This document shows positions 11,478 through 27,890 of a DNA stretch of 64,000 bases, piece after piece. The stretch comes from Clostridiales bacterium. GTDB lineage: Bacteria; Bacillota; Clostridia; Oscillospirales; Oscillospiraceae. A program made the translations under genes and the position numbers. The notes beneath the pieces are model-generated. The model had not been told where the DNA came from, searched no databases, and saw only the letters and a list, made by a program, of their open reading frames with translations. The stretch's first letter is position 1, and every line of letters begins with the position of its first letter. The DNA lies in assembly GCA_012719035.1 (NCBI GenBank), contig JAAYBD010000009.1, positions 246-64,245 on the forward strand, written 5' to 3'.

Positions 11478-14400
11478 ATGAGCCGCAGTTTAATTCTCCA
11501 AGGGAGGGATTTTTTGGAGAGCGTGTACAGAAAAAACGGAAAGAGACTTACGGCAGTCATTTTAGTTATTGTCTGCCTTTTATCTGTTGCCGCCGGTTGC
11601 ACTCAGAAACATCCGTCATATATACCAGAGGCAAGCCGGCAAGGATACGGAATATCCGCAGCTGTTCTTTATAACGGAAAATCAAATGACGGGGCATGGA
11701 ACGATACACTTGATTATCTTGAGCAGTCAACTATTATCAATCTCACCGCCTGCGCTTTGGATATATCCGAGGCTTATGACCTGAGTAACTACAGCGTTTT
11801 ATATCTTGATAAAAGCATTATTGAAGCGGACGATTTGGCGGATATTTGCGCGTCTGTTGAGAGCTTTACGGAAAACGGCGGTTCAGTTTTTCTTGATAAT
11901 GCATTTTATGACGTATTCGACAAAGAATTCATAGGCGTTAGTAAATTTGTCAAAGTAACAGAATGTCCCGCTGATGTTTCTTTGCCCGAAGCGGGCGAAG
12001 ATATCCGGGAACTGCAGGAGATCATTGCGGATTTTATAAGTCTGTATACGTCTTATGCCGATTATTCAGCGCTGGCGGATTATGATTACGGTTATGCTGC
12101 TGTATGCGATACCGCTGTACCGGTAGTTACGTGGAAAGACCACGCAATTTATACTCTGAACAAATACGGCAAGGGAAATGTCTTTTTTACAAATCCCCTG
12201 CTGCCCAATGTCTTTTCGCTCAGCGGATTTTCAATGCAATACAGAAATGAGACTCAGAAAGCTTTTTCAAATACAACAGCCGGCTGCAATCAGCTGTTGT
12301 TAAACGCTTTTGCGGGGTATGTCTCAAAGCAGACCTACGGATATTATATCGGACGGGTCTTCGGAAGCTTCGGCAGCACAGATATGGCGTGGGAGCTTCA
12401 TTATGAGGAGATAAACGGCATCAAGAACAACTCGCTGAAGATTTTCAGCGAACTGTGCAGGGAATATCTTCAGGTTCCGTCATTTTCGCTCATACGCAAT
12501 TCATATTGGTGGTTCAGGCGCGCTGAAACCATCTCATACTATCTCAATAACAGCGATGACGGGAAGCTCGATTTTTCACTTGATTTTAACGAAAATGCCT
12601 ATTCATCGGGAACGCATATAGTAAGCGGCAATGAATGGCTGAATCTTGGAAGCATAGAAAATGCCGGAAGTTATTTTGCTGACTATCCGCAGTACACATA
12701 TAGGGCATATCCGGAGCTGTGTGATTATGATTCCGACGGATTAACTGATATATTCTGCGGAAGTGCTGACGGCAAATTGTACTATTATAAAGGCAAGAGC
12801 TTTGATGGACGGTTCTGCGTATCCGATGCGGCTGTTCTTACCGATGGGAGCGGAAAAGAACTTACTGTCCCGGGCTATTCTTCGCCGAATCTTATCGATA
12901 TTAACTGCGACGGCTATCCCGATATCATTTCCGGAAGCTCTGACGGCAGCATATACTGGTTTTCGGGAAACGGAACTTTGGCATTTGAACCGCAGGGTGT
13001 GCTGATAGACACAGATATTTTAGGGCAGAGTCTGCCGTCCGCCGGCGATATAAATAATGACGGTATAGCCGATATCGCGGTCGGCTCGAACGAGGGCATA
13101 CTCATCATATATTACGGAACAAAAAACTCTGACGGCAGTGTTTTCTATAGTGACAGCAACATGGGCAGCCTGTCTCTTGAATGCGCAAATGCCGGTCTTG
13201 GGACATGGCTTGCACCTGAGATTTCGGATTACAGCAAAGACGGCAGGAACGAGCTTTTAATCGGAACTTTTGACGGATATGTTGCGCTTTTCTCGTGGAT
13301 GAGTTCAGGCTCGCTCGAATTTGGCGGCTTTATTACTACAGGCGAAAAAAATTATAAGGGCAATAACAATATTAAAACCGGCAATAACTGCGTGCCCGTT
13401 CTTTACGATATAAATTCTGATGGTTCGCTCGATCTTGTCTGCGGCAGCCTTGAATACGGGCTTGCTTATCCGATAGATTCGGAATACTTCCCCTATGCCG
13501 ATGAACTGCGGGAGCAGATGGATTATGCGGCTGAGCATTATTATTACATGGGTGCTCATTTTTACACCAATTCATATTCATCCGAGGAAAGAGAAGCATA
13601 TGAGCTGAAAGCTCAAATGGATTCCTTTAAGAAGTATGGTTTGGAGACTTCCGGAATAGGCGTTAATCAGCACACATGGTATACAAGCACTCTCAGCCCT
13701 GCCCAGTCACTTCTGAGCGCCTATGATGCGGGGCTATTGTGGAACTCAGGCTTTGCTCCTGCCAGAAGCGCTTTCAATGCGCCGCAGGTTGCAGCCGAAA
13801 ATGTAATCTCGCTCCCGTTCTACCTTAAAAGCGGCGGAGAAAATACCATTTTGCTGCAAAACTGCTCCGTACTGCCGTATAAAGGCAGTGACTGGACTGA
13901 TATTTCAGCGAAATATGGCATTCCTGTCTGTGTATTCTATCACTGCGACTTTGTTTATAGATCGGATGAGGAAGCGATTCCCTATCTAAAACAACTGTCT
14001 GATTTCTGGTGGGAAAATGGCTATAATTTCGTAAAAGAAGATCAGATGATGACGGCAACGGCCGCTTCATACAATATGAACGTTACTGTAGAGGGGGTCA
14101 ATTTTGCAGTCGATTCCCCGATTGATATTTTAGTAAAGGCAAATGAAATTTCCAGCGATTTTCCGCTTTATAATAAGCTGTATCAGAATTCAGCCGGTGC
14201 AAAAATCGTTTTCAGCGAGAATATAGATGCCCGAAATATTGCGACGGATGCCGATGTATGGAAACTTGAAGGGAATACTCTTTATATCTCTTTAAACAAG
14301 CCTGTTTCCGTTAAAGATACCTTGGCAGAAGCAGAAAACAACATTCACATAGAACGGGTAAATATTGCGGCTGACATCAAAACAAATCCAGACGGCGCTG

Positions 14401-14555
14401 TGATAAGCTTTCTCGATAATGGAATGATGCAGGCGGTGGTTTCAGGACGTGCCGAAACTGCATCTGAAGGCTGGACCGTAAGTGAACGTGACGGGAAAAC
14501 AATATTTACAAAATACGGAGCTGCCGATGTACTGGATATTTCTTACAGCTCATGA
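11478..14555 (+). CDS. Large secreted lipoprotein with five FG-GAP/VCBS-type repeats
   Basis: Lipobox LSVAAG|C. Five DxD/NxDGxxD repeats: DYDSDGLTD, DINCDGYPD, DINNDGIAD, DYSKDGRNE, DINSDGSLD (nt about 12720-13460). A more likely start is TTG at 11514, 6 nt after GGGAGG, giving MESVYRKNGKRLTAVILVIVCLLSVAAGC. Confidence 0.75.
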   Translation: MSRSLILQGRDFLESVYRKNGKRLTAVILVIVCLLSVAAGCTQKHPSYIPEASRQGYGISAAVLYNGKSNDGAWNDTLDYLEQSTIINLTACALDISEAYDLSNYSVLYLDKSIIEADDLADICASVESFTENGGSVFLDNAFYDVFDKEFIGVSKFVKVTECPADVSLPEAGEDIRELQEIIADFISLYTSYADYSALADYDYGYAAVCDTAVPVVTWKDHAIYTLNKYGKGNVFFTNPLLPNVFSLSGFSMQYRNETQKAFSNTTAGCNQLLLNAFAGYVSKQTYGYYIGRVFGSFGSTDMAWELHYEEINGIKNNSLKIFSELCREYLQVPSFSLIRNSYWWFRRAETISYYLNNSDDGKLDFSLDFNENAYSSGTHIVSGNEWLNLGSIENAGSYFADYPQYTYRAYPELCDYDSDGLTDIFCGSADGKLYYYKGKSFDGRFCVSDAAVLTDGSGKELTVPGYSSPNLIDINCDGYPDIISGSSDGSIYWFSGNGTLAFEPQGVLIDTDILGQSLPSAGDINNDGIADIAVGSNEGILIIYYGTKNSDGSVFYSDSNMGSLSLECANAGLGTWLAPEISDYSKDGRNELLIGTFDGYVALFSWMSSGSLEFGGFITTGEKNYKGNNNIKTGNNCVPVLYDINSDGSLDLVCGSLEYGLAYPIDSEYFPYADELREQMDYAAEHYYYMGAHFYTNSYSSEEREAYELKAQMDSFKKYGLETSGIGVNQHTWYTSTLSPAQSLLSAYDAGLLWNSGFAPARSAFNAPQVAAENVISLPFYLKSGGENTILLQNCSVLPYKGSDWTDISAKYGIPVCVFYHCDFVYRSDEEAIPYLKQLSDFWWENGYNFVKEDQMMTATAASYNMNVTVEGVNFAVDSPIDILVKANEISSDFPLYNKLYQNSAGAKIVFSENIDARNIATDADVWKLEGNTLYISLNKPVSVKDTLAEAENNIHIERVNIAADIKTNPDGAVISFLDNGMMQAVVSGRAETASEGWTVSERDGKTIFTKYGAADVLDISYSS

Positions 14556-14572: not shown

Positions 14573-16081
14573 ATGAACTCTGCCGTTTGTCTGCTTGAGC
14601 GGGCTTCGGAAAAATATGCATCAAGAACTGCCGTGCAGGATGAAGATATTAGCCTTACTTATGCGGAATATAGACGTATATCCAGAGCCATCGGCACAGC
14701 ATTCCTGCGTATGGACGGAGCCAGACCTGTAATTGTGTATCTGCCAAAGAGCACACATGCGCTTACCTGCTTCATGGGTGCCATGTACAGCGGAGCGCCA
14801 TACATTCCCGTTGATGCGCACATACCGATGCGAAGACTTGAAAAAATAATAGCAGGCCTTGCACCATGCTATATCGTGACAGATGAAAATTTAATAGCAA
14901 ACCTGCGGGAATGTGATACCTCGGAGGCGAGGGTGTGCTTATACAGCGAGCTGTCATCGGCAGAGGCAGACGATGCGCTGGTTGACAAAGCTCTCAGCCG
15001 CGTTATCGACACCGACCCGATATATGTAATGTTTACTTCCGGTTCTACAGGTTCGCCAAAGGGCGTGACTATACCCCACCGCGGAATTCTGGACTATGCA
15101 GAATGGGTTGTTTCCACCTTTGAGTTTAATGAAAATACAGTTATGGCAAACCAAGCGCCGTTTTATTTTGATAATTCGACCTTTGATATCTACGGCTGTA
15201 TGCGGTGCGGCGGAAAGCTTGTGCTCACGCCTGAAACGCTCTTCATGTTTCCCCTCAAATTGCCCCAGTTTCTTGATGAGCATGATATAACTTCGATATT
15301 CTGGGTGCCGACAGTAATGATAAATATTGCAAATTCCGGTGTTTTGTCGGACTACACTCTGCCGAAGCTGAAAAATGTCGCTTTCTGCGGGGAGGTTATG
15401 CCTAACAAGCAGCTGAATATTTGGAGGAAGGCGCTGCCCCATTGCAGTTATGCCAATCTATATGGGCCGACTGAAATCACAGATGTGTGCTGCTATTATA
15501 AGGTAGATAAGGAATTTGGAGATGCCGACCCGCTGCCGATAGGAAAAGCGTGTGAAAACATGCGGGTTCTTATCCTTACGGAAGACGGGCGCGAAGCTCC
15601 AGTCAATGAAGCGGGAGAGCTCTGCGTTATCGGTACGGGAGTAGCTCTTGGATACTGGAATGCTCCGGAGATTTCCGCAAAAGCTTTTGTTCAAAATCCT
15701 CTCAATCCTTTTTACAGCGAAAGAATGTACCGTACCGGTGATCTTGCATATTTCAATGAAGACGGTCTTATCATGTTCATCGGAAGAAAAGACAATCAGA
15801 TAAAACATAAGGGAAACAGAATCGAATTGGGTGAAATCGAAACGGCGGCAATGTGTGTTGAGGGAGTTGAAAACGCCTGTGCGATTTTTGACTCAAACAA
15901 GCAGGAAATAGTTCTGTTCGTTGAAACTAAAGGAACTCTGCCCCTGCGCAGATTCAATGTCGAACTAAAAAAGTACATTCCACAGTATATGCTGCCCTCT
16001 ATGCTTATACCGATGGAAAAACTGCCTCATACGGCAAATGATAAAATAGACAGGGTCACGCTGCGTAAGACCCTTGAATAA
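14573..16081 (+). CDS. dltA: DltA-like adenylation enzyme (D-alanine--D-alanyl carrier protein ligase family)
   Basis: 502 aa with AMP-binding motifs MFTSGSTGSPKGV, YGPTE, YRTGD and GRKDNQIKHKGNRIELGEIE. AGGAGG RBS. A carrier protein gene follows immediately. Substrate not verifiable from sequence. Confidence 0.8.
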   Translation: MNSAVCLLERASEKYASRTAVQDEDISLTYAEYRRISRAIGTAFLRMDGARPVIVYLPKSTHALTCFMGAMYSGAPYIPVDAHIPMRRLEKIIAGLAPCYIVTDENLIANLRECDTSEARVCLYSELSSAEADDALVDKALSRVIDTDPIYVMFTSGSTGSPKGVTIPHRGILDYAEWVVSTFEFNENTVMANQAPFYFDNSTFDIYGCMRCGGKLVLTPETLFMFPLKLPQFLDEHDITSIFWVPTVMINIANSGVLSDYTLPKLKNVAFCGEVMPNKQLNIWRKALPHCSYANLYGPTEITDVCCYYKVDKEFGDADPLPIGKACENMRVLILTEDGREAPVNEAGELCVIGTGVALGYWNAPEISAKAFVQNPLNPFYSERMYRTGDLAYFNEDGLIMFIGRKDNQIKHKGNRIELGEIETAAMCVEGVENACAIFDSNKQEIVLFVETKGTLPLRRFNVELKKYIPQYMLPSMLIPMEKLPHTANDKIDRVTLRKTLE

Positions 16082-16097
16082 TTGGCGGGAGATTATT

Positions 16098-16349
16098 ATG
16101 AAGCCTCAGGAAATAATTGAAATACTGGACAAGTTTATAAAGGAGCATTTCGAGCTGGATGGCGATCCGGATTATTCGACGGACGTAAATCTTTTTGACT
16201 ATGGTTTTGTGGATTCGCTTGGAGCGGTCGAAATCATCATGTTTGTCGAGGAGCGATTCGGCTGCTCGATTACACAGCGTGATATATCCAAATATCCCAT
16301 GAATTCCGTCGAGGAAATTGCCGAGGTAGTGGCTTCTAAGCTTCAATAG
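16098..16349 (+). CDS. dltC: DltC-like acyl/aminoacyl carrier protein
   Basis: 83 aa with phosphopantetheine site FVDSLGAVEIIMFVEE. ATG at 16098 chosen (GGGAG RBS). Confidence 0.8.
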   Translation: MKPQEIIEILDKFIKEHFELDGDPDYSTDVNLFDYGFVDSLGAVEIIMFVEERFGCSITQRDISKYPMNSVEEIAEVVASKLQ

Positions 16350-16366: not shown

Positions 16367-17515
16367 ATGTGGTTTCTCCAGACAGATATTTTGATACGGA
16401 TGCTGATTGCCTGCGTGATTGCCGCAACTGCGCTTGTAATCGCGCAAAAGTTTATGAAGCATTCCCATGTAATGAACGGTCTGATAATTCTGGATTTGCT
16501 TATGATACTTTATGTGTCAAAAAGACTGTTCGTGTTCTATATCGGGTACGTGCTTGTAACATACGCGTTTGTTCTGTTCATCAAGAAAAAGAGAAAATTC
16601 CGCAAGTTCTGGTTTGTGATGTGCTGCCTTGGCTGTACAGTGCCGTTTTTCTATACCAGAGCAACTGAGTTTTTCTCATTTCTGCCGTATGGACTTGCGA
16701 TGGTAGGTATCTCGTATAATATGCTAAAAGCAATAGATGCGATATACTATACTTACTATACTGATGAGCATATCCCGTTTCTCACATACGCGAATTATAT
16801 TCTGTTTTTTCCGGTCATCACTGCGGGGCCGATTTTCCGCTATCGTGACTTTAATAAAACTTTTCACAATCCCGAACCCCTTACGGCGGAAAAGGCGGAA
16901 TATTTTGTCAAGCGCTTTATCAGGGGAATGTTTAAAAAGGTCGTTGTTCTTGCCCTTGTCATAAATCTCATGAACTATCTGGTGACCATGAACGGGCATT
17001 GGTATCTGAGTATTTTAATTACGGTTCTCAGCTATTTGACCCTGTTTCTTGATATGTCGGGATATGCCGATATCGCGATTTCCATAGGCGGTATTATCGG
17101 TCTCAAAGTGCCGGAAAACTTTAAAGAGCCGCTCAAGGCACCGTCTTTTACTCAGTTCTGGCGCAACTGGCATATAACTCTCAGCGACTGGATCAGAGAG
17201 CATATATTCGTTGTTGTGAGCGGTAAGAAGCTAAACCGCATGCAAGGTGCGCTTATCGGCTTCCTCACTATGTTTTTTATGTGCTTATGGCACGGGTTTA
17301 CCATTGCGTACGTGATTGATGGCGTGATTTTAGGACTTGTACTTGCGTGTGAAAATCTTTTTGAAATAACTACGGTCAATAAGCGAAAAGTTAAAAAATC
17401 ATATTTTGTTTTCAGATGCTTTGTGACCAACACCATCTTTGCTCTCAACAGCCTGCTGCTTACATTGGGCGGTGCAGAAGCCGTCCGGGTAATAAAAGGC
17501 TTTTTGACATGGTAG
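16367..17515 (+). CDS. dltB: DltB-like MBOAT family membrane O-acyltransferase
   Basis: 382 aa, polytopic. FWRNWHITLSDWIREHIF and LWHG (conserved MBOAT His). Confidence 0.8.
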   Translation: MWFLQTDILIRMLIACVIAATALVIAQKFMKHSHVMNGLIILDLLMILYVSKRLFVFYIGYVLVTYAFVLFIKKKRKFRKFWFVMCCLGCTVPFFYTRATEFFSFLPYGLAMVGISYNMLKAIDAIYYTYYTDEHIPFLTYANYILFFPVITAGPIFRYRDFNKTFHNPEPLTAEKAEYFVKRFIRGMFKKVVVLALVINLMNYLVTMNGHWYLSILITVLSYLTLFLDMSGYADIAISIGGIIGLKVPENFKEPLKAPSFTQFWRNWHITLSDWIREHIFVVVSGKKLNRMQGALIGFLTMFFMCLWHGFTIAYVIDGVILGLVLACENLFEITTVNKRKVKKSYFVFRCFVTNTIFALNSLLLTLGGAEAVRVIKGFLTW

Positions 17516-17525
17516 GGAGGCATCA

Positions 17526-18434
17526 ATGATTACAAAGCTTTTATCTAAAATAAGGCGATATAGATTTATTGCCGCTCTGTTCCTTATTTTTATCGTTATG
17601 GACTGCCTGCTCGGGGTCATGTTTGAAAGCTATACGGTGAAAAGCGGGAACTTCTGGTTAAATGATTATGAAATCACCCGCCGCGATCACCCCGAGGAAA
17701 TATGGGATAAGGTTTTCTACGGGAATTCAGCGGTTATTTCGGGTTACCGAGAGGATTTGAGTACGAGCGGATACACTAATTTCGGCATTGACTATGGCTC
17801 AATGCAAGATATGCTGAAGATTCTTCGCTCGGACAAGGTGAAAATCGGGGAAGAACTTGTAATAGGCATAAATTGGGCGGCTTTGTTCGATAATATGGAA
17901 ACAAATCCAAACTATTATTGGAACAGGGTAACTCTTGAGCCGTATAGCTATTTTCAGCGGGATAGGCTTTATGCGGCGTTTACTGGAAAGCTGAAATCAA
18001 TAGTGACCGGAGAACCATGGGCGGAAGGGCAGTTTGCCTATCAGACTAAGAGCTACTATTATTCAAGCTTGCCTACAGCTCAGTTGTTGGAAAAGGTTGA
18101 TGTCTATCAAGAACGTTACTGGTCGACTGGCGTGGAAGGCTGTAGCAAAAATCTTGAGGCAATAGGAGAAATCGTCGGCTTCTGCAAGGAAAACGATATT
18201 CGGCTGCGCATAGTTTTAATGCCGTGGAATCCGGCAATAGAAAAGACTGATGTCATATCAGAGCTTGATAAGAGCGTGATTGACATATGCAGGGAAAACG
18301 ATATTGAATACCTCGATTTTTCAGATGCTTTTGATGCAGAATGCTTTTATGATTTGGGACATATGAGCTATGAATACGGCTCACATGTTTTTACGGAGGC
18401 GATTGACAAGTGGCTGAATTCAAAAAAAGAATAG
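17526..18434 (+). CDS. DltD-like membrane-anchored SGNH-type acyl transfer protein (short form, 302 aa)
   Basis: N-terminal TM (FIAALFLIFIVMDCLLGV). FYGNSAV (GxS block) and C-terminal DLGHM (DxxH block). Occupies the dltD position in the operon. Confidence 0.55.
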   Translation: MITKLLSKIRRYRFIAALFLIFIVMDCLLGVMFESYTVKSGNFWLNDYEITRRDHPEEIWDKVFYGNSAVISGYREDLSTSGYTNFGIDYGSMQDMLKILRSDKVKIGEELVIGINWAALFDNMETNPNYYWNRVTLEPYSYFQRDRLYAAFTGKLKSIVTGEPWAEGQFAYQTKSYYYSSLPTAQLLEKVDVYQERYWSTGVEGCSKNLEAIGEIVGFCKENDIRLRIVLMPWNPAIEKTDVISELDKSVIDICRENDIEYLDFSDAFDAECFYDLGHMSYEYGSHVFTEAIDKWLNSKKE

Positions 18435-18553
18435 AAGAGTTTTTAAAAACGCCTGCGGGTATCGCTGCGGAAGTTCTTGTATATGCTGTGATGATGATTT
18501 TGGTGTTAATTTTCTTTACCGGAAACGGGCAGTTCATCTACGAGGCATTTTAG
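18410..18553 (+). CDS. dltX: DltX-like 47-aa membrane micro-protein with C-terminal FxYxxF motif (not in ORF track)
   Basis: GTG at 18410, 10 nt after GGAGG. My translation: MAEFKKRIEEFLKTPAGIAAEVLVYAVMMILVLIFFTGNGQFIYEAF. One TM helix and a terminal FIYEAF. The stop codon sits inside the RBS of the next gene. Confidence 0.6.
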   Translation: MAEFKKRIEEFLKTPAGIAAEVLVYAVMMILVLIFFTGNGQFIYEAF

Positions 18554-18564
18554 GAGGCTTTATT

Positions 18565-19032
18565 ATGATAATACGCAAAGCCGAGGAACGGGACATGGAG
18601 AGTCTCCTTGATATGTACGACAAGATGTATGAGATACTGTGCGGAGAATACGGCTATCCGTTTGAGCTTAGCAGGACGGATAACCGCGAGGTTCTTGCCG
18701 TGCAGATGCGCTCAAAGCTGTGCAAGGTGCTTGTTGCCGAGGATAACGGCTCTTTGGTGGGATTTGTTCATACTTCTATTTCTAAGCTTGACCGCAGGTT
18801 TACGTTCAAAGGACAGCGGGTTATAGGCAGGATCGATGATATCTATGTTTCGGGAGAGGCAAGAGGTTCGGGACTTGCACAAGATCTTCTTGAGAAAGCT
18901 GAAGAATGGCTTCGGGAAGAAGGAATAGAAATTGTCGAAAGCTATATTCTTGACCGGAATGAGCGCTCCCTGCGTTTTCACCAAAAAGATGGTTTTCAGA
19001 TCCTGTCCAAGCGCACTTATAAAGTCTTGTGA
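18565..19032 (+). CDS. GNAT family N-acetyltransferase
   Basis: 155 aa with acetyl-CoA binding block IYVSGEARGSGLAQDLLEKAEEW. RBS TTAGGAGG overlaps the upstream stop. Confidence 0.75.
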   Translation: MIIRKAEERDMESLLDMYDKMYEILCGEYGYPFELSRTDNREVLAVQMRSKLCKVLVAEDNGSLVGFVHTSISKLDRRFTFKGQRVIGRIDDIYVSGEARGSGLAQDLLEKAEEWLREEGIEIVESYILDRNERSLRFHQKDGFQILSKRTYKVL

Positions 19033-19132: not shown

Positions 19133-19176
19133 AAAAAGGATATGAAAAACCGAAAAGCGATTTTCCATATCCTTAA
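19133..19176 (-). terminator. terminator after hypA
   Basis: GGATATGGAAAA...TTTTCATATCC hairpin read on the minus strand, followed by TTTTTATATTT. Confidence 0.55.
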
Positions 19177-19553: not shown

Positions 19554-20531
19554 TTATGCGTTCTGCTGAGCCTTGAGTGCCTTAATGTCCAGAGGAGCAA
19601 GGACATCGGGATCAACCAGCTCAAGAGTGATAGCATCCTTCTTGCAGGCAAGGAGACAAGCTTCGCAGCCGCGGCAGAGATCCTCGTTTACCTGAATAAG
19701 GTTGTCTTTATCTCTGTAGATTGCGAGGAAGTTACACTTCTTTTCGCACATACCGCAGTTTACGCATTTTTCTTTGTCGATCTTTGCGATGTAGCCTGAG
19801 CCCGCCATCATGGGAGCGGTGAGATAGTTCTGGGAAAGCAGGGCGGTGCAGCAGCAGGGACAGCAGTTGCAGATGCTGTACAGACGGCCTGCGGCAACAT
19901 CCTTAAAGAACGCTGCATGTACGTTTCCTCTTTCGTGGCACTCGCGGAGAACCTGAAGAGCCTCTTCCTGGGTGACAAGACGGCCGTTTAAGTATCTGTC
20001 GCGGTCAAGGCACCACGACACCCAAGGCTCACCAATAACGATGCAGACGTCGCGGGGCTCACAGCCTTTTTCGCCTCTGACGTTGCGGCATACGCAGTCG
20101 ATTACGGCGATGCGGTCCGGAGCCTCGATGATGGCGTTGCGGGCGATTTCATAGGGCATAATTGTCTTGGGCAGCTCGCCGAGATTGAGGTCCTCAGTGA
20201 GAGTAACGACCTGCTCTGCGTCCTCAAGACGGAGAACTTTAGCATGGTATGTATTCGTCATAAGTGAACCGACACCTCTGTTGCACTCGTTAACGCCGGT
20301 TTTTACAAGCTCTGCAACGATATCGAACTCAATGCCCTCGGGCTTTTTGAGATCGTCAGGCTCGGGTAGATAATTGTTGAAAGATTCTCTCATGTAGTAA
20401 ACATAGAGAGGGATATATCCGAAATAAAGCTGTGCGTGCATGAGGTTTGCAAAGCCCTCATGGTTGCGGGGGAAAGCCTTGGCGAGGGCGCGCTGCGATT
20501 TTTTTCTGACTTCGGGATCGTTGTTGTACAT
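19554..20531 (-). CDS. Cys-rich 4Fe-4S dicluster domain protein, function unknown
   Basis: C-terminal CVNCGMCEKKC and CRGCEACLLAC ferredoxin motifs, plus an unusual CNCCPCCC cluster and VIDCVCRN. AAGGAG RBS. Confidence 0.6.
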   Translation of the reverse strand: MYNNDPEVRKKSQRALAKAFPRNHEGFANLMHAQLYFGYIPLYVYYMRESFNNYLPEPDDLKKPEGIEFDIVAELVKTGVNECNRGVGSLMTNTYHAKVLRLEDAEQVVTLTEDLNLGELPKTIMPYEIARNAIIEAPDRIAVIDCVCRNVRGEKGCEPRDVCIVIGEPWVSWCLDRDRYLNGRLVTQEEALQVLRECHERGNVHAAFFKDVAAGRLYSICNCCPCCCTALLSQNYLTAPMMAGSGYIAKIDKEKCVNCGMCEKKCNFLAIYRDKDNLIQVNEDLCRGCEACLLACKKDAITLELVDPDVLAPLDIKALKAQQNA

Positions 20532-27639: not shown

Positions 27640-27890
27640 GTCAAACGCGTTGATGGGGACAGGAAAAAGCCTTAGCAGATTCAAGAGAGCTGTCGTCTGG
27701 TGAAAGACAGTATCTGCCGCTGATTTCATATCACCCCTGAGCGGTATGCTGAACTTTTAGTAAGCATTTCCGGGTCTTCCCGTTACAGAAGCGGACGCTT
27801 GCCGACGTCTATGAGTGGCCCTAAAAATGGGCAACAAGAGTGGTACCACGGATATTTACCTCCGTCTCTTATTGGGAGACGGAGGTTTTT
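27640..27890 (+). promoter_or_regulatory. T-box leader (predicted Ile specifier AUC) with intrinsic terminator
   Basis: AGAGAG (27683-27688). GGTGAAA distal loop. ATC-A at 27730-27733 just before the closing CCCC stem. T-box motif AAGAGTGGTACCACGG (27835-27850). Terminator CCTCCGTCTC-ttattg-GGAGACGGAGG-TTTTT (27859-27890). A weak TTGTTA/TACAAT promoter lies at 27604-27630. Confidence 0.8.

Follow-up and report, generated by a model that had tools for sequence, protein, structure and literature searches.

A DltX-like microprotein encoded behind an SGNH-fold gene as a candidate acyl shuttle in a Dlt-like operon of Clostridia

Is a very short open reading frame (ORF) wedged into the end of a longer gene a gene in its own right and, if it is, could its product do for another acylation system what DltX does for the Dlt pathway? 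The question is raised by a 64,000-nucleotide (nt) stretch of contig JAAYBD010000009.1 (hereafter the window, i.e., the whole stretch that was analysed), in which an ORF at 18410-18553 encodes a DltX-like microprotein of 47 amino acids (aa) that we label X. DltX itself is a membrane microprotein of <50 aa with an invariant Tyr in a C-terminal FXYXXF motif, the “acyl shuttle”; this Tyr takes D-Ala from DltC via the MBOAT protein DltB and hands it to a Ser of the SGNH protein DltD (PMC12148441, PMC13653941). In MBOAT pathways other than Dlt no DltX-like microprotein occurs and the motif is carried at the MBOAT's C-terminal end, and DltX is the sole free-standing acyl-shuttle microprotein of the published account (PMC12148441); in the literature that we searched, we found no description of DltX-like microproteins outside canonical dlt. 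We consider it likely that X is a covalent, free-standing acyl shuttle in a carrier-protein-dependent MBOAT-SGNH acylation system; the gene set, its conservation and the folds stand as observations, and every step of the transfer is inferred from the analogy with Dlt.

A conserved microprotein gene directly behind the SGNH gene

In the window, the genes follow each other in the order FG-GAP protein, adenylation enzyme (A), carrier protein (C), MBOAT (B), a “D-like” SGNH-fold protein (D), X and a GNAT acetyltransferase (Table 1). X is read in frame +2 from a GTG to a TAG, and its 47 sense codons translate as (M/V)AEFKKRIEEFLKTPAGIAAEVLVYAVMMILVLIFFTGNGQFIYEAF, as an earlier note on this DNA had proposed. 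That note had also placed a GGAGG 10 nt upstream of the start, a 25-nt overlap with the gene before it and the stop codon inside the Shine-Dalgarno (SD) sequence of the GNAT gene, all of which are confirmed: the GGAGG lies within the 3' end of the upstream 302-codon gene, which ends at 18434, and the TAG (18551-18553) overlaps AGGAGG 18552-18557, with a spacer of 7 nt to the GNAT ATG at 18565. Since the overlap amounts to 16-25 nt among relatives and the SD sits inside the upstream gene, translation of X is probably coupled to that of the SGNH gene, which fits the SGNH protein and X acting as a complex.

The single transmembrane (TM) helix and C-terminal FxYxxF of the earlier reading are located at residues 18-36 and in the terminus FIYEAF, respectively. 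The basic residues K5, K6, R8 and K13 all stand N-terminal of the helix, in which Y25, M28 and F36 are nearly invariant across the wider family, and the C-terminal tail is without positive charge; from the positive-inside rule, an N-in, C-out orientation is predicted. X would then be a bitopic protein whose N-terminus is cytoplasmic and whose single helix leads to an extracytoplasmic tail of 11 residues ending F-I-Y-E-A-F, in which Tyr44 is the proposed acyl-acceptor residue.

Table 1. Features of the X operon in the window (positions are those of the whole stretch)
Feature	Position	Strand	Basis or detail
Gene X, 47-aa DltX-like microprotein	18410..18553	+	Frame +2, GTG start, 47 sense codons, TAG stop
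Shine-Dalgarno GGAGG of X	18395..18399	+	10 nt 5' of GTG, within 3' end of upstream gene
Single predicted TM helix of X, IAAEVLVYAVMMILVLIFF	18461..18517	+	Codons 18-36, Kyte-Doolittle 19-residue window, score 2.72
Terminal hexapeptide F-I-Y-E-A-F of X	18533..18550	+	Codons 42-47; Tyr44 = TAC 18539-18541
FG-GAP/VCBS-repeat protein, 1025 aa, first gene of the cluster	11478..14555	+	Pfam FG-GAP_3 E 3.6e-19
Stand-alone amino-acid adenylation enzyme (DltA-like / nonribosomal peptide synthetase A-domain type)	14573..16081	+	TIGR01733 334.5 bits, cutoff 317.4
Carrier protein (PP-binding, DltC-like)	16074..16349	+	Pfam PP-binding E 3.4e-8
MBOAT, 382 aa, DltB-like	16367..17515	+	Pfam MBOAT E 6.5e-23
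302-aa “D-like” protein, N-terminal TM helix and SGNH-fold domain	17526..18434	+	Fold search
GNAT acetyltransferase, 155 aa, variable accessory gene	18565..19032	+	Pfam Acetyltransf_1 E 3.5e-16
17-bp hairpin between the convergent GNAT gene and a minus-strand gene (19554-20531)	19136..19174		Consensus scan only

ORF length alone is uninformative here (139 ORFs of at least 30 aa occur within 13 kb), and both this plenty of short ORFs and the overlap with the upstream gene would suit the view that X is a chance or non-coding ORF, or else a remnant that a frameshift has separated from the SGNH gene's 3' end. The window contains 1810 stop-to-stop segments of 20 aa or more, of which only three have a loose aromatic-x-Y-x-x-hydrophobic terminus, and among these X alone has the strict F-x-Y-x-x-F, the others ending Y-G-V-L and Y-H-A-V. 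The family profile, run over the same segments, also matches X alone (E 4.5e-21; next best E 1). A second dltX-like ORF, such as the canonical dltX elsewhere that the earlier note had considered, was found in the window neither by the C-terminal motif scan nor by the family profile.

The relatives of X are numerous. A protein search of 5.8 billion sequences returned 15 clusters close to X (43-48 aa, 55-98% identity), across which FTGNGQFIYE is invariant, and several of these close homologues are already called, as “hypothetical protein”, in metagenome-assembled genomes (MAGs) of Oscillospiraceae. An exhaustive hidden Markov model (HMM) search of 1.84 billion representatives recovered 63 clusters at 50% identity (E<=1e-3), nearly all of them microproteins of 35-66 aa in which the match reaches the last residue. 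Conservation of the frame in syntenic loci had been set beforehand as a test, and in a codon comparison of seven distinct loci (37 ungapped codons) the frame is intact: the proportion of synonymous differences (pS) is 0.5-0.9, near saturation, against 0.07-0.27 for nonsynonymous ones (pN), and the ratio of nonsynonymous to synonymous rates (dN/dS) is 0.08-0.27 where computable. Third codon positions vary in 35 of the 37 codons, first positions in 17 and second positions in 16. The other frames have pN/pS of 0.5-2.4, and an antisense ORF at 18391-18537 is not conserved, being interrupted in relatives.

An independent set of loci was retrieved from GTDB species genomes via the 302-aa SGNH neighbour, not via X. 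It comprised 119 relatives, from which 80 loci were retained (L014-L093), nearly all from Clostridia (Oscillospiraceae, Lachnospiraceae, Ca. Scatomorpha, Avoscillospira, Avilachnospira) and including Agathobaculum desmolans ATCC 43058 (L057) and Planococcus chinensis MB653 (L083). Of the 80 loci, 64 have an X homologue of 35-48 aa directly behind the SGNH gene; in each of them the family HMM matches once only, without exception at the 3' end of that gene and on its strand. These 64 orthologues keep a separate frame, a start codon (ATG in 57, GTG in 7) and an SD at 35-98% identity, with an SD-like element 5' of the start in 62 of them. Because frame, start and SD are conserved in 64 genomes, and amino acids are kept where synonymous sites are saturated, we regard X as a translated gene with near certainty; it has, besides, been called by the gene callers of several sources. 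A chance ORF and a frameshift remnant are rejected, and we hold either to be extremely improbable.

Conservation peaks at the C-terminus, where the earlier note had asked whether the terminal motif is kept. With the Tyr numbered 0, all 59 unique X sequences have G(-4), F(-2), Y(0) and E(+1); F(-8), G(-6) and I(-1) are each found in 58, and the last residue of the motif, F(+3), in 51. The Tyr is always 3-5 residues from the free C-terminus, and the family signature reads F-[TS]-G-[NH]-G-x-F-I-Y-E-[AG]-F. Homologues of X are annotated as “hypothetical protein” or are uncalled, and the Pfam and NCBIfam DltX models miss X; the family profile, together with the signature G-x-F-I-Y-E-[AG]-F at the end of a 35-48-aa ORF that overlaps an SGNH gene, offers a handle for annotation. 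The operon occurs widely among Clostridia of gut and rumen (MAGs of Oscillospiraceae and Lachnospiraceae; Agathobaculum desmolans ATCC 43058), with one Planococcus in addition, and is most likely a non-canonical cell-envelope modification system of gut Clostridia.

The stop codon inside the GNAT SD had been put forward as an argument for real translation. That X is a real gene is borne out by selection and synteny; the linkage to GNAT, for its part, is local to this genome. The same stop codon, along with the adenylation, carrier and GNAT genes of the cluster, could also be taken to mean that X is a leader or coupling ORF for GNAT translation, or the precursor of a ribosomal peptide natural product for the adenylation and GNAT enzymes. 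However, the GNAT gene comes after X at just 2 of the 80 loci, plus L007, L011 and L012; in most relatives it is located elsewhere in the cluster (ahead of C or B) or missing, whereas X keeps its sequence and place regardless. Moreover, X consists of a TM helix with its conserved part at the C-terminus, and the Pfam annotation of the cluster contains no maturation enzymes of the type that act on ribosomally synthesized and post-translationally modified peptides (RiPPs). A GNAT leader and a RiPP precursor are likewise rejected; we grant them a chance barely greater than that of a spurious ORF.

Two of the homologues stand out in other respects. At one locus (L012 8001-8132) an in-frame ATG stands four codons before the called start of the 43-aa homologue P0010 (MAQIMIKMKQFL...); the database start is probably mis-called, and from the upstream ATG the protein would have 47 aa and begin with “MA”, as is usual in the family. 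The Bacillales isolate Planococcus chinensis MB653 (NZ_JABWTK010000005.1), the only non-Clostridia attribution among the 80 loci, carries a complete FG-GAP, A, C, GNAT, B, D, X cluster, and its X is the most divergent of those found (…FFNNSGPFIYEGF, E 2e-9).

Likeness to DltX and the proposed transfer

The comparison system for X is DltX (PF12459, formerly DUF3687; “teichoic acid D-Ala incorporation-associated protein DltX”), encoded in dltXABCD of Bacillota. Each is a protein of <50 aa in which a charged N-terminus is followed by a single TM helix and by a short tail that is extracytoplasmic (for X, by prediction), and both have an F-I-Y-x-x-F C-terminus with the Tyr at position -3. The genes that accompany X, like those that accompany dltX, code for an adenylation enzyme of DltA type, a carrier of DltC type, an MBOAT of DltB type without a shuttle of its own (in the window its C-terminus, ...VIKGFLTW, bears no fused FxYxxF) and a TM-anchored SGNH protein. 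The DltX of B. thuringiensis (Bt407) is MERLKEIWSRPLTQWVAKTVYYLAILFALLWLYGFHDTNTSTFIYNEF (PMC5541007); it equals X in length and layout and ends ...TFIYNEF, its invariant Tyr three residues from the end, and the terminus of X aligns end-to-end with the FIYNEF of Bacillus DltX.

The two systems also differ in several respects. In X the Tyr is followed by an invariant Glu (+1) and preceded by a G-[NH]-G turn, whereas DltX has ...F-I-Y-N-E-F; the X gene comes last, overlapping D, in the order A-C-B-D-X in 64 genomes, whereas the canonical order is X-A-B-C-D (Bacillus L097). The SGNH partner of X, at ~300 aa, is unrelated to DltD by sequence, the adenylation pocket is not that of DltA (see below) and X, unlike canonical DltX, co-occurs with an FG-GAP lipoprotein.

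Taken on the Dlt model, the proposed transfer would run in four steps. The adenylation enzyme would activate an amino acid and load it onto the carrier protein; the DltB-like MBOAT would then move the aminoacyl group through the membrane onto the Tyr44 hydroxyl of X; the flexible tail of X would bring it to Ser68 of the TM-anchored SGNH protein; and the SGNH protein would esterify an extracytoplasmic envelope polymer, possibly with the FG-GAP lipoprotein or with the polymer presented by it. The known mechanism is left unchanged by this scheme, and the X system is mechanistically anticipated by the Dlt paradigm. X would thus be a sequence-divergent shuttle microprotein, with a family of its own, in a divergent Dlt-type system, and it is for the covalent shuttle role that we hold this to be probable.

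A related wiring is known from PatA/PatB-type MBOAT-SGNH pairs (PMC12148441), which have in common with the X system a proposed acyl-Tyr on a C-terminal hexapeptide and a route from the MBOAT funnel to the SGNH Ser; PatB is also among the structural neighbours of the window SGNH protein. The motif of X, however, is on a separate microprotein and the donor would be a carrier protein, whereas in PatA/PatB-type pairs the motif is on the MBOAT and the donor is acyl-CoA.

The X module is also found at the end of much larger proteins. Five representative polytopic proteins of 386-536 aa (P0031, P0036, P0050, P0070 and P0073; metagenomic and uncharacterised) end in an X-type helix followed by ...FFTGNGxFIYEAF (E 2e-8 to 8e-5), and one of them, P0050, is the only one to reach Pfam PMT_2. 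At L095 (1561-3159) a fusion gene occupies the position of X, after an MBOAT gene (54% identical) and an SGNH gene (38% identical). These PMT_2-like (GT-C-type) fusions are polytopic, whereas X is a microprotein, and in all of them the X module is the extreme C-terminus, which is consistent with a need for a free C-terminal tail. Given these fusions, the X module is portable, always with a free C-terminus. A relationship of the FG-GAP protein to the PMT_2-like fusion partner was considered and rejected (BLASTP E 1.6).

Sequence thresholds, X-less loci and the FG-GAP gene

Several observations weigh against the shuttle reading, and they concern both the sequence of X and the company that it keeps. 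With regard to sequence, X scores 14.0 bits (E 0.036) against Pfam DltX (PF12459), for which the cutoff is 25, and has no match in NCBIfam at E<=10. The hhalign probability between the X family and DltX is 46.7%, and the narrow B. cereus-group DltX profile does not separate X from the noise of the window. The last Phe of the motif is replaced by V, L, G or I, or is absent, in about 8 of the 59 unique sequences.

Other sequence comparisons of X and DltX are weak but consistent. PF12459 is the only Pfam match of X, with residues 23-47 on profile positions 16-43 of 43, and its E of 0.036 comes to about 1.5e-6 per model by our own arithmetic. It is also the commonest match in the X family, where 9 of 52 members reach E<=1 (the best has 0.0011) and all stay below the cutoff. 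In hhalign, the X family and B. cereus-group DltX align over 38 columns with both C-termini matched (P 2e-4), and reciprocal HMM searches between the X family and DltX gave E 1e-4 to 1e-2, in databases that were tiny. BLASTP of X against DltX gave no match, and PDB sequence searches with X alone and with the family profile gave nothing meaningful and brought up no DltX chain. The canonical DltX set came from a homologue search with Bt407 DltX that yielded B. cereus-group proteins only, and the resulting profile is narrow and insensitive; because it cannot tell X from noise, homology and convergence on a short motif are inseparable, and X may be a remote homologue of DltX or a convergent solution. 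The label “DltX-like” given by the earlier note, and with it the acyl-shuttle reading, is well supported by motif, topology and context, but as a claim of membership in the DltX family it falls below the curated thresholds.

With regard to gene content, 16 of the 80 related loci carry A-A-C-B-D without X within up to 7 kb (L029, L037, L038, L044, L045, L047, L050, L053, L055, L056, L060, L061, L063, L067, L068 and L073). In these loci, from Ca. Ornithomonoglobus and others, A-A-C-B-D is followed by a DUF805 gene; neither the family HMM at E<=10 nor a loose regular expression for a C-terminal Tyr turned up a shuttle over that distance, and the C-termini of the MBOATs, on inspection, bear no motif. 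The downstream DUF805 protein was considered as a hidden shuttle and rejected, as its Y-motif is that of the DUF805 consensus and the tail after it is basic and presumably cytoplasmic. Because these A-A-C-B-D loci have no X over that distance and their MBOATs are without the motif, this MBOAT-SGNH pair may be able to do without X, or the X gene may lie elsewhere in those genomes; these loci are the main evidence against X being obligatory for the pair. The 16 X-less loci have no FG-GAP gene either: wherever the flank is sufficient, the 80 loci have either both X and the gene for the ~1000-aa FG-GAP lipoprotein (ahead of A or immediately behind X) or neither of them, and the presence of X follows the FG-GAP gene, not B or D.

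Such a distribution would fit X being a real membrane microprotein without a covalent role, i.e., a structural or assembly subunit with the Tyr motif as a binding epitope, which might, for example, tether or regulate the FG-GAP lipoprotein or stabilise the SGNH anchor. The related A-A-C-B-D loci do appear functional without X, and the peptide at the C-terminus of L. plantarum DltX also binds DltD and DltE (PMC13653941). However, invariance in X falls on the very residues by which the catalytic shuttle is defined (F-x-Y, always 3-5 residues away from a free C-terminus), the MBOAT is without a shuttle of its own and, in the Dlt model, the SGNH active site is out of reach of the MBOAT funnel (PMC13653941). 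We thus think an assembly subunit unlikely and retain the covalent shuttle as the best explanation of X. The X-less loci and the PMT_2::X fusions provide natural experiments on the wiring of the Tyr shuttle.

Neighbouring genes and a possible second shuttle family

The other products of the operon resemble their Dlt counterparts to differing degrees. The adenylation enzyme scores 300 bits against the DltA equivalog, below the cutoff of 560, and is 31% identical to Bacillus DltA. Since it keeps the Asp of FDxS, the acyl group is probably an alpha-amino acid, which need not be D-Ala. By our own approximate mapping, in which eight specificity positions were anchored on motifs, the pocket is DNFACLDV for the window enzyme and for 28 further genes of the family; Bacillus DltA has DLMLCTVA, a difference at 6 of the 8 mapped positions. 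Many loci carry two adenylases with different pockets (second genes in L028, L035, L041-L043, L064 and others), in which the second reads DNFLAMDI or DNFVALVD, and by the same approximate mapping the pocket types are discrete (DNFACLDV, DVMAALDV, DNFLAMDI and DNFVALVD). The differing pockets of the two-adenylase loci suggest more than one acyl substrate.

A bolder reading, which we advance tentatively and rate at somewhat less than an even chance, is that X represents a second, hitherto undescribed family of free-standing acyl-shuttle microproteins, serving a Clostridia-wide envelope acylation distinct from teichoic-acid D-alanylation, in which an amino acid or amino acids other than D-Ala would pass via the DltB-like MBOAT, Tyr44 and a new SGNH family to a target handled by the FG-GAP protein. 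As part of the same tentative reading, two-adenylase loci would export two different amino acids, and the shuttle module could also be joined to a PMT_2/GT-C-like membrane protein. If it were true, the Tyr shuttle would be a portable module that is not limited to DltX or to MBOAT C-termini. In any case, the operon suggests that abundant commensals carry out an uncharacterised envelope modification, probably with a different acyl group and with an FG-GAP partner.

The carrier protein has as its best NCBIfam match DltC (33.9 bits, below the cutoff of 68) and is 36% identical to Bacillus DltC over 39 aa; its start codon is uncertain, its orthologues being 83-85 aa long. For the MBOAT, the closest solved relatives in the PDB are DltB structures (8jem/6bug, E 7e-20), and its WRNWHITLS and WHGFT align with both DltB His motifs; it is 31% identical to Bacillus DltB and reaches 154 bits against NCBIfam DltB, below the cutoff of 375. 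The FG-GAP protein has a lipoprotein-like signal (LLSVAAGC), with a single N-terminal hydrophobic segment and then a Cys.

The 302-aa protein upstream of X, described in the earlier note as DltD-like, is so at the level of the modelled fold only. Its AlphaFold2 model, built from a 38-sequence alignment, has a mean predicted local distance difference test (pLDDT) score of 94.8, and Foldseek against the PDB matches it to GDSL/SGNH hydrolases at probability 1.0, including DltD (7dxm/6o93/6pfx/3bma) and the peptidoglycan O-acetyltransferase PatB (7tlv). G66 and S68 (in FYGNS) as well as D276 and H279 (in DLGH) are invariant in the 38 sequences, and the putative catalytic residues are Ser68, Asp276 and His279. 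By sequence, the attribution to the DltD family did not hold: a Pfam scan assigned the protein to no family, it had no match to PF04914 (DltD) at E<=10, and BLASTP against Bacillus DltD gave E 0.88. Two of its homologues match PF04914 weakly (E 0.046 and 0.13), and PDB sequence searches with the single sequence and with a 7-sequence profile gave sub-threshold GDSL matches (E 0.18-0.29).

In one Oscillospiraceae lineage (L001-L006 8146-10638; L013 2545-5049) a gene of the sulfatase family, encoding ~830 aa, begins 1-3 nt after X. Its product has faint precomputed Pfam matches to SLH and, in L013, also to LtaS_N, and this neighbour hints at a link between the X system and a glycerophosphate or teichoic-type polymer.

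In the window, the hairpin behind the GNAT gene is the likely end of the operon and the only useful terminator-like site in the scan. A promoter scan of the window returned 21 promoter-like sites, i.e., the level of shuffled sequence (20.1 expected), and a tRNA scan of the window found no tRNA genes. Further downstream, at 27641-27872 on the plus strand and unrelated to the dlt-like cluster, lies the only element found by the Rfam scan of the window, a T-box leader (RF00230, 111.8 bits, E 7e-24).

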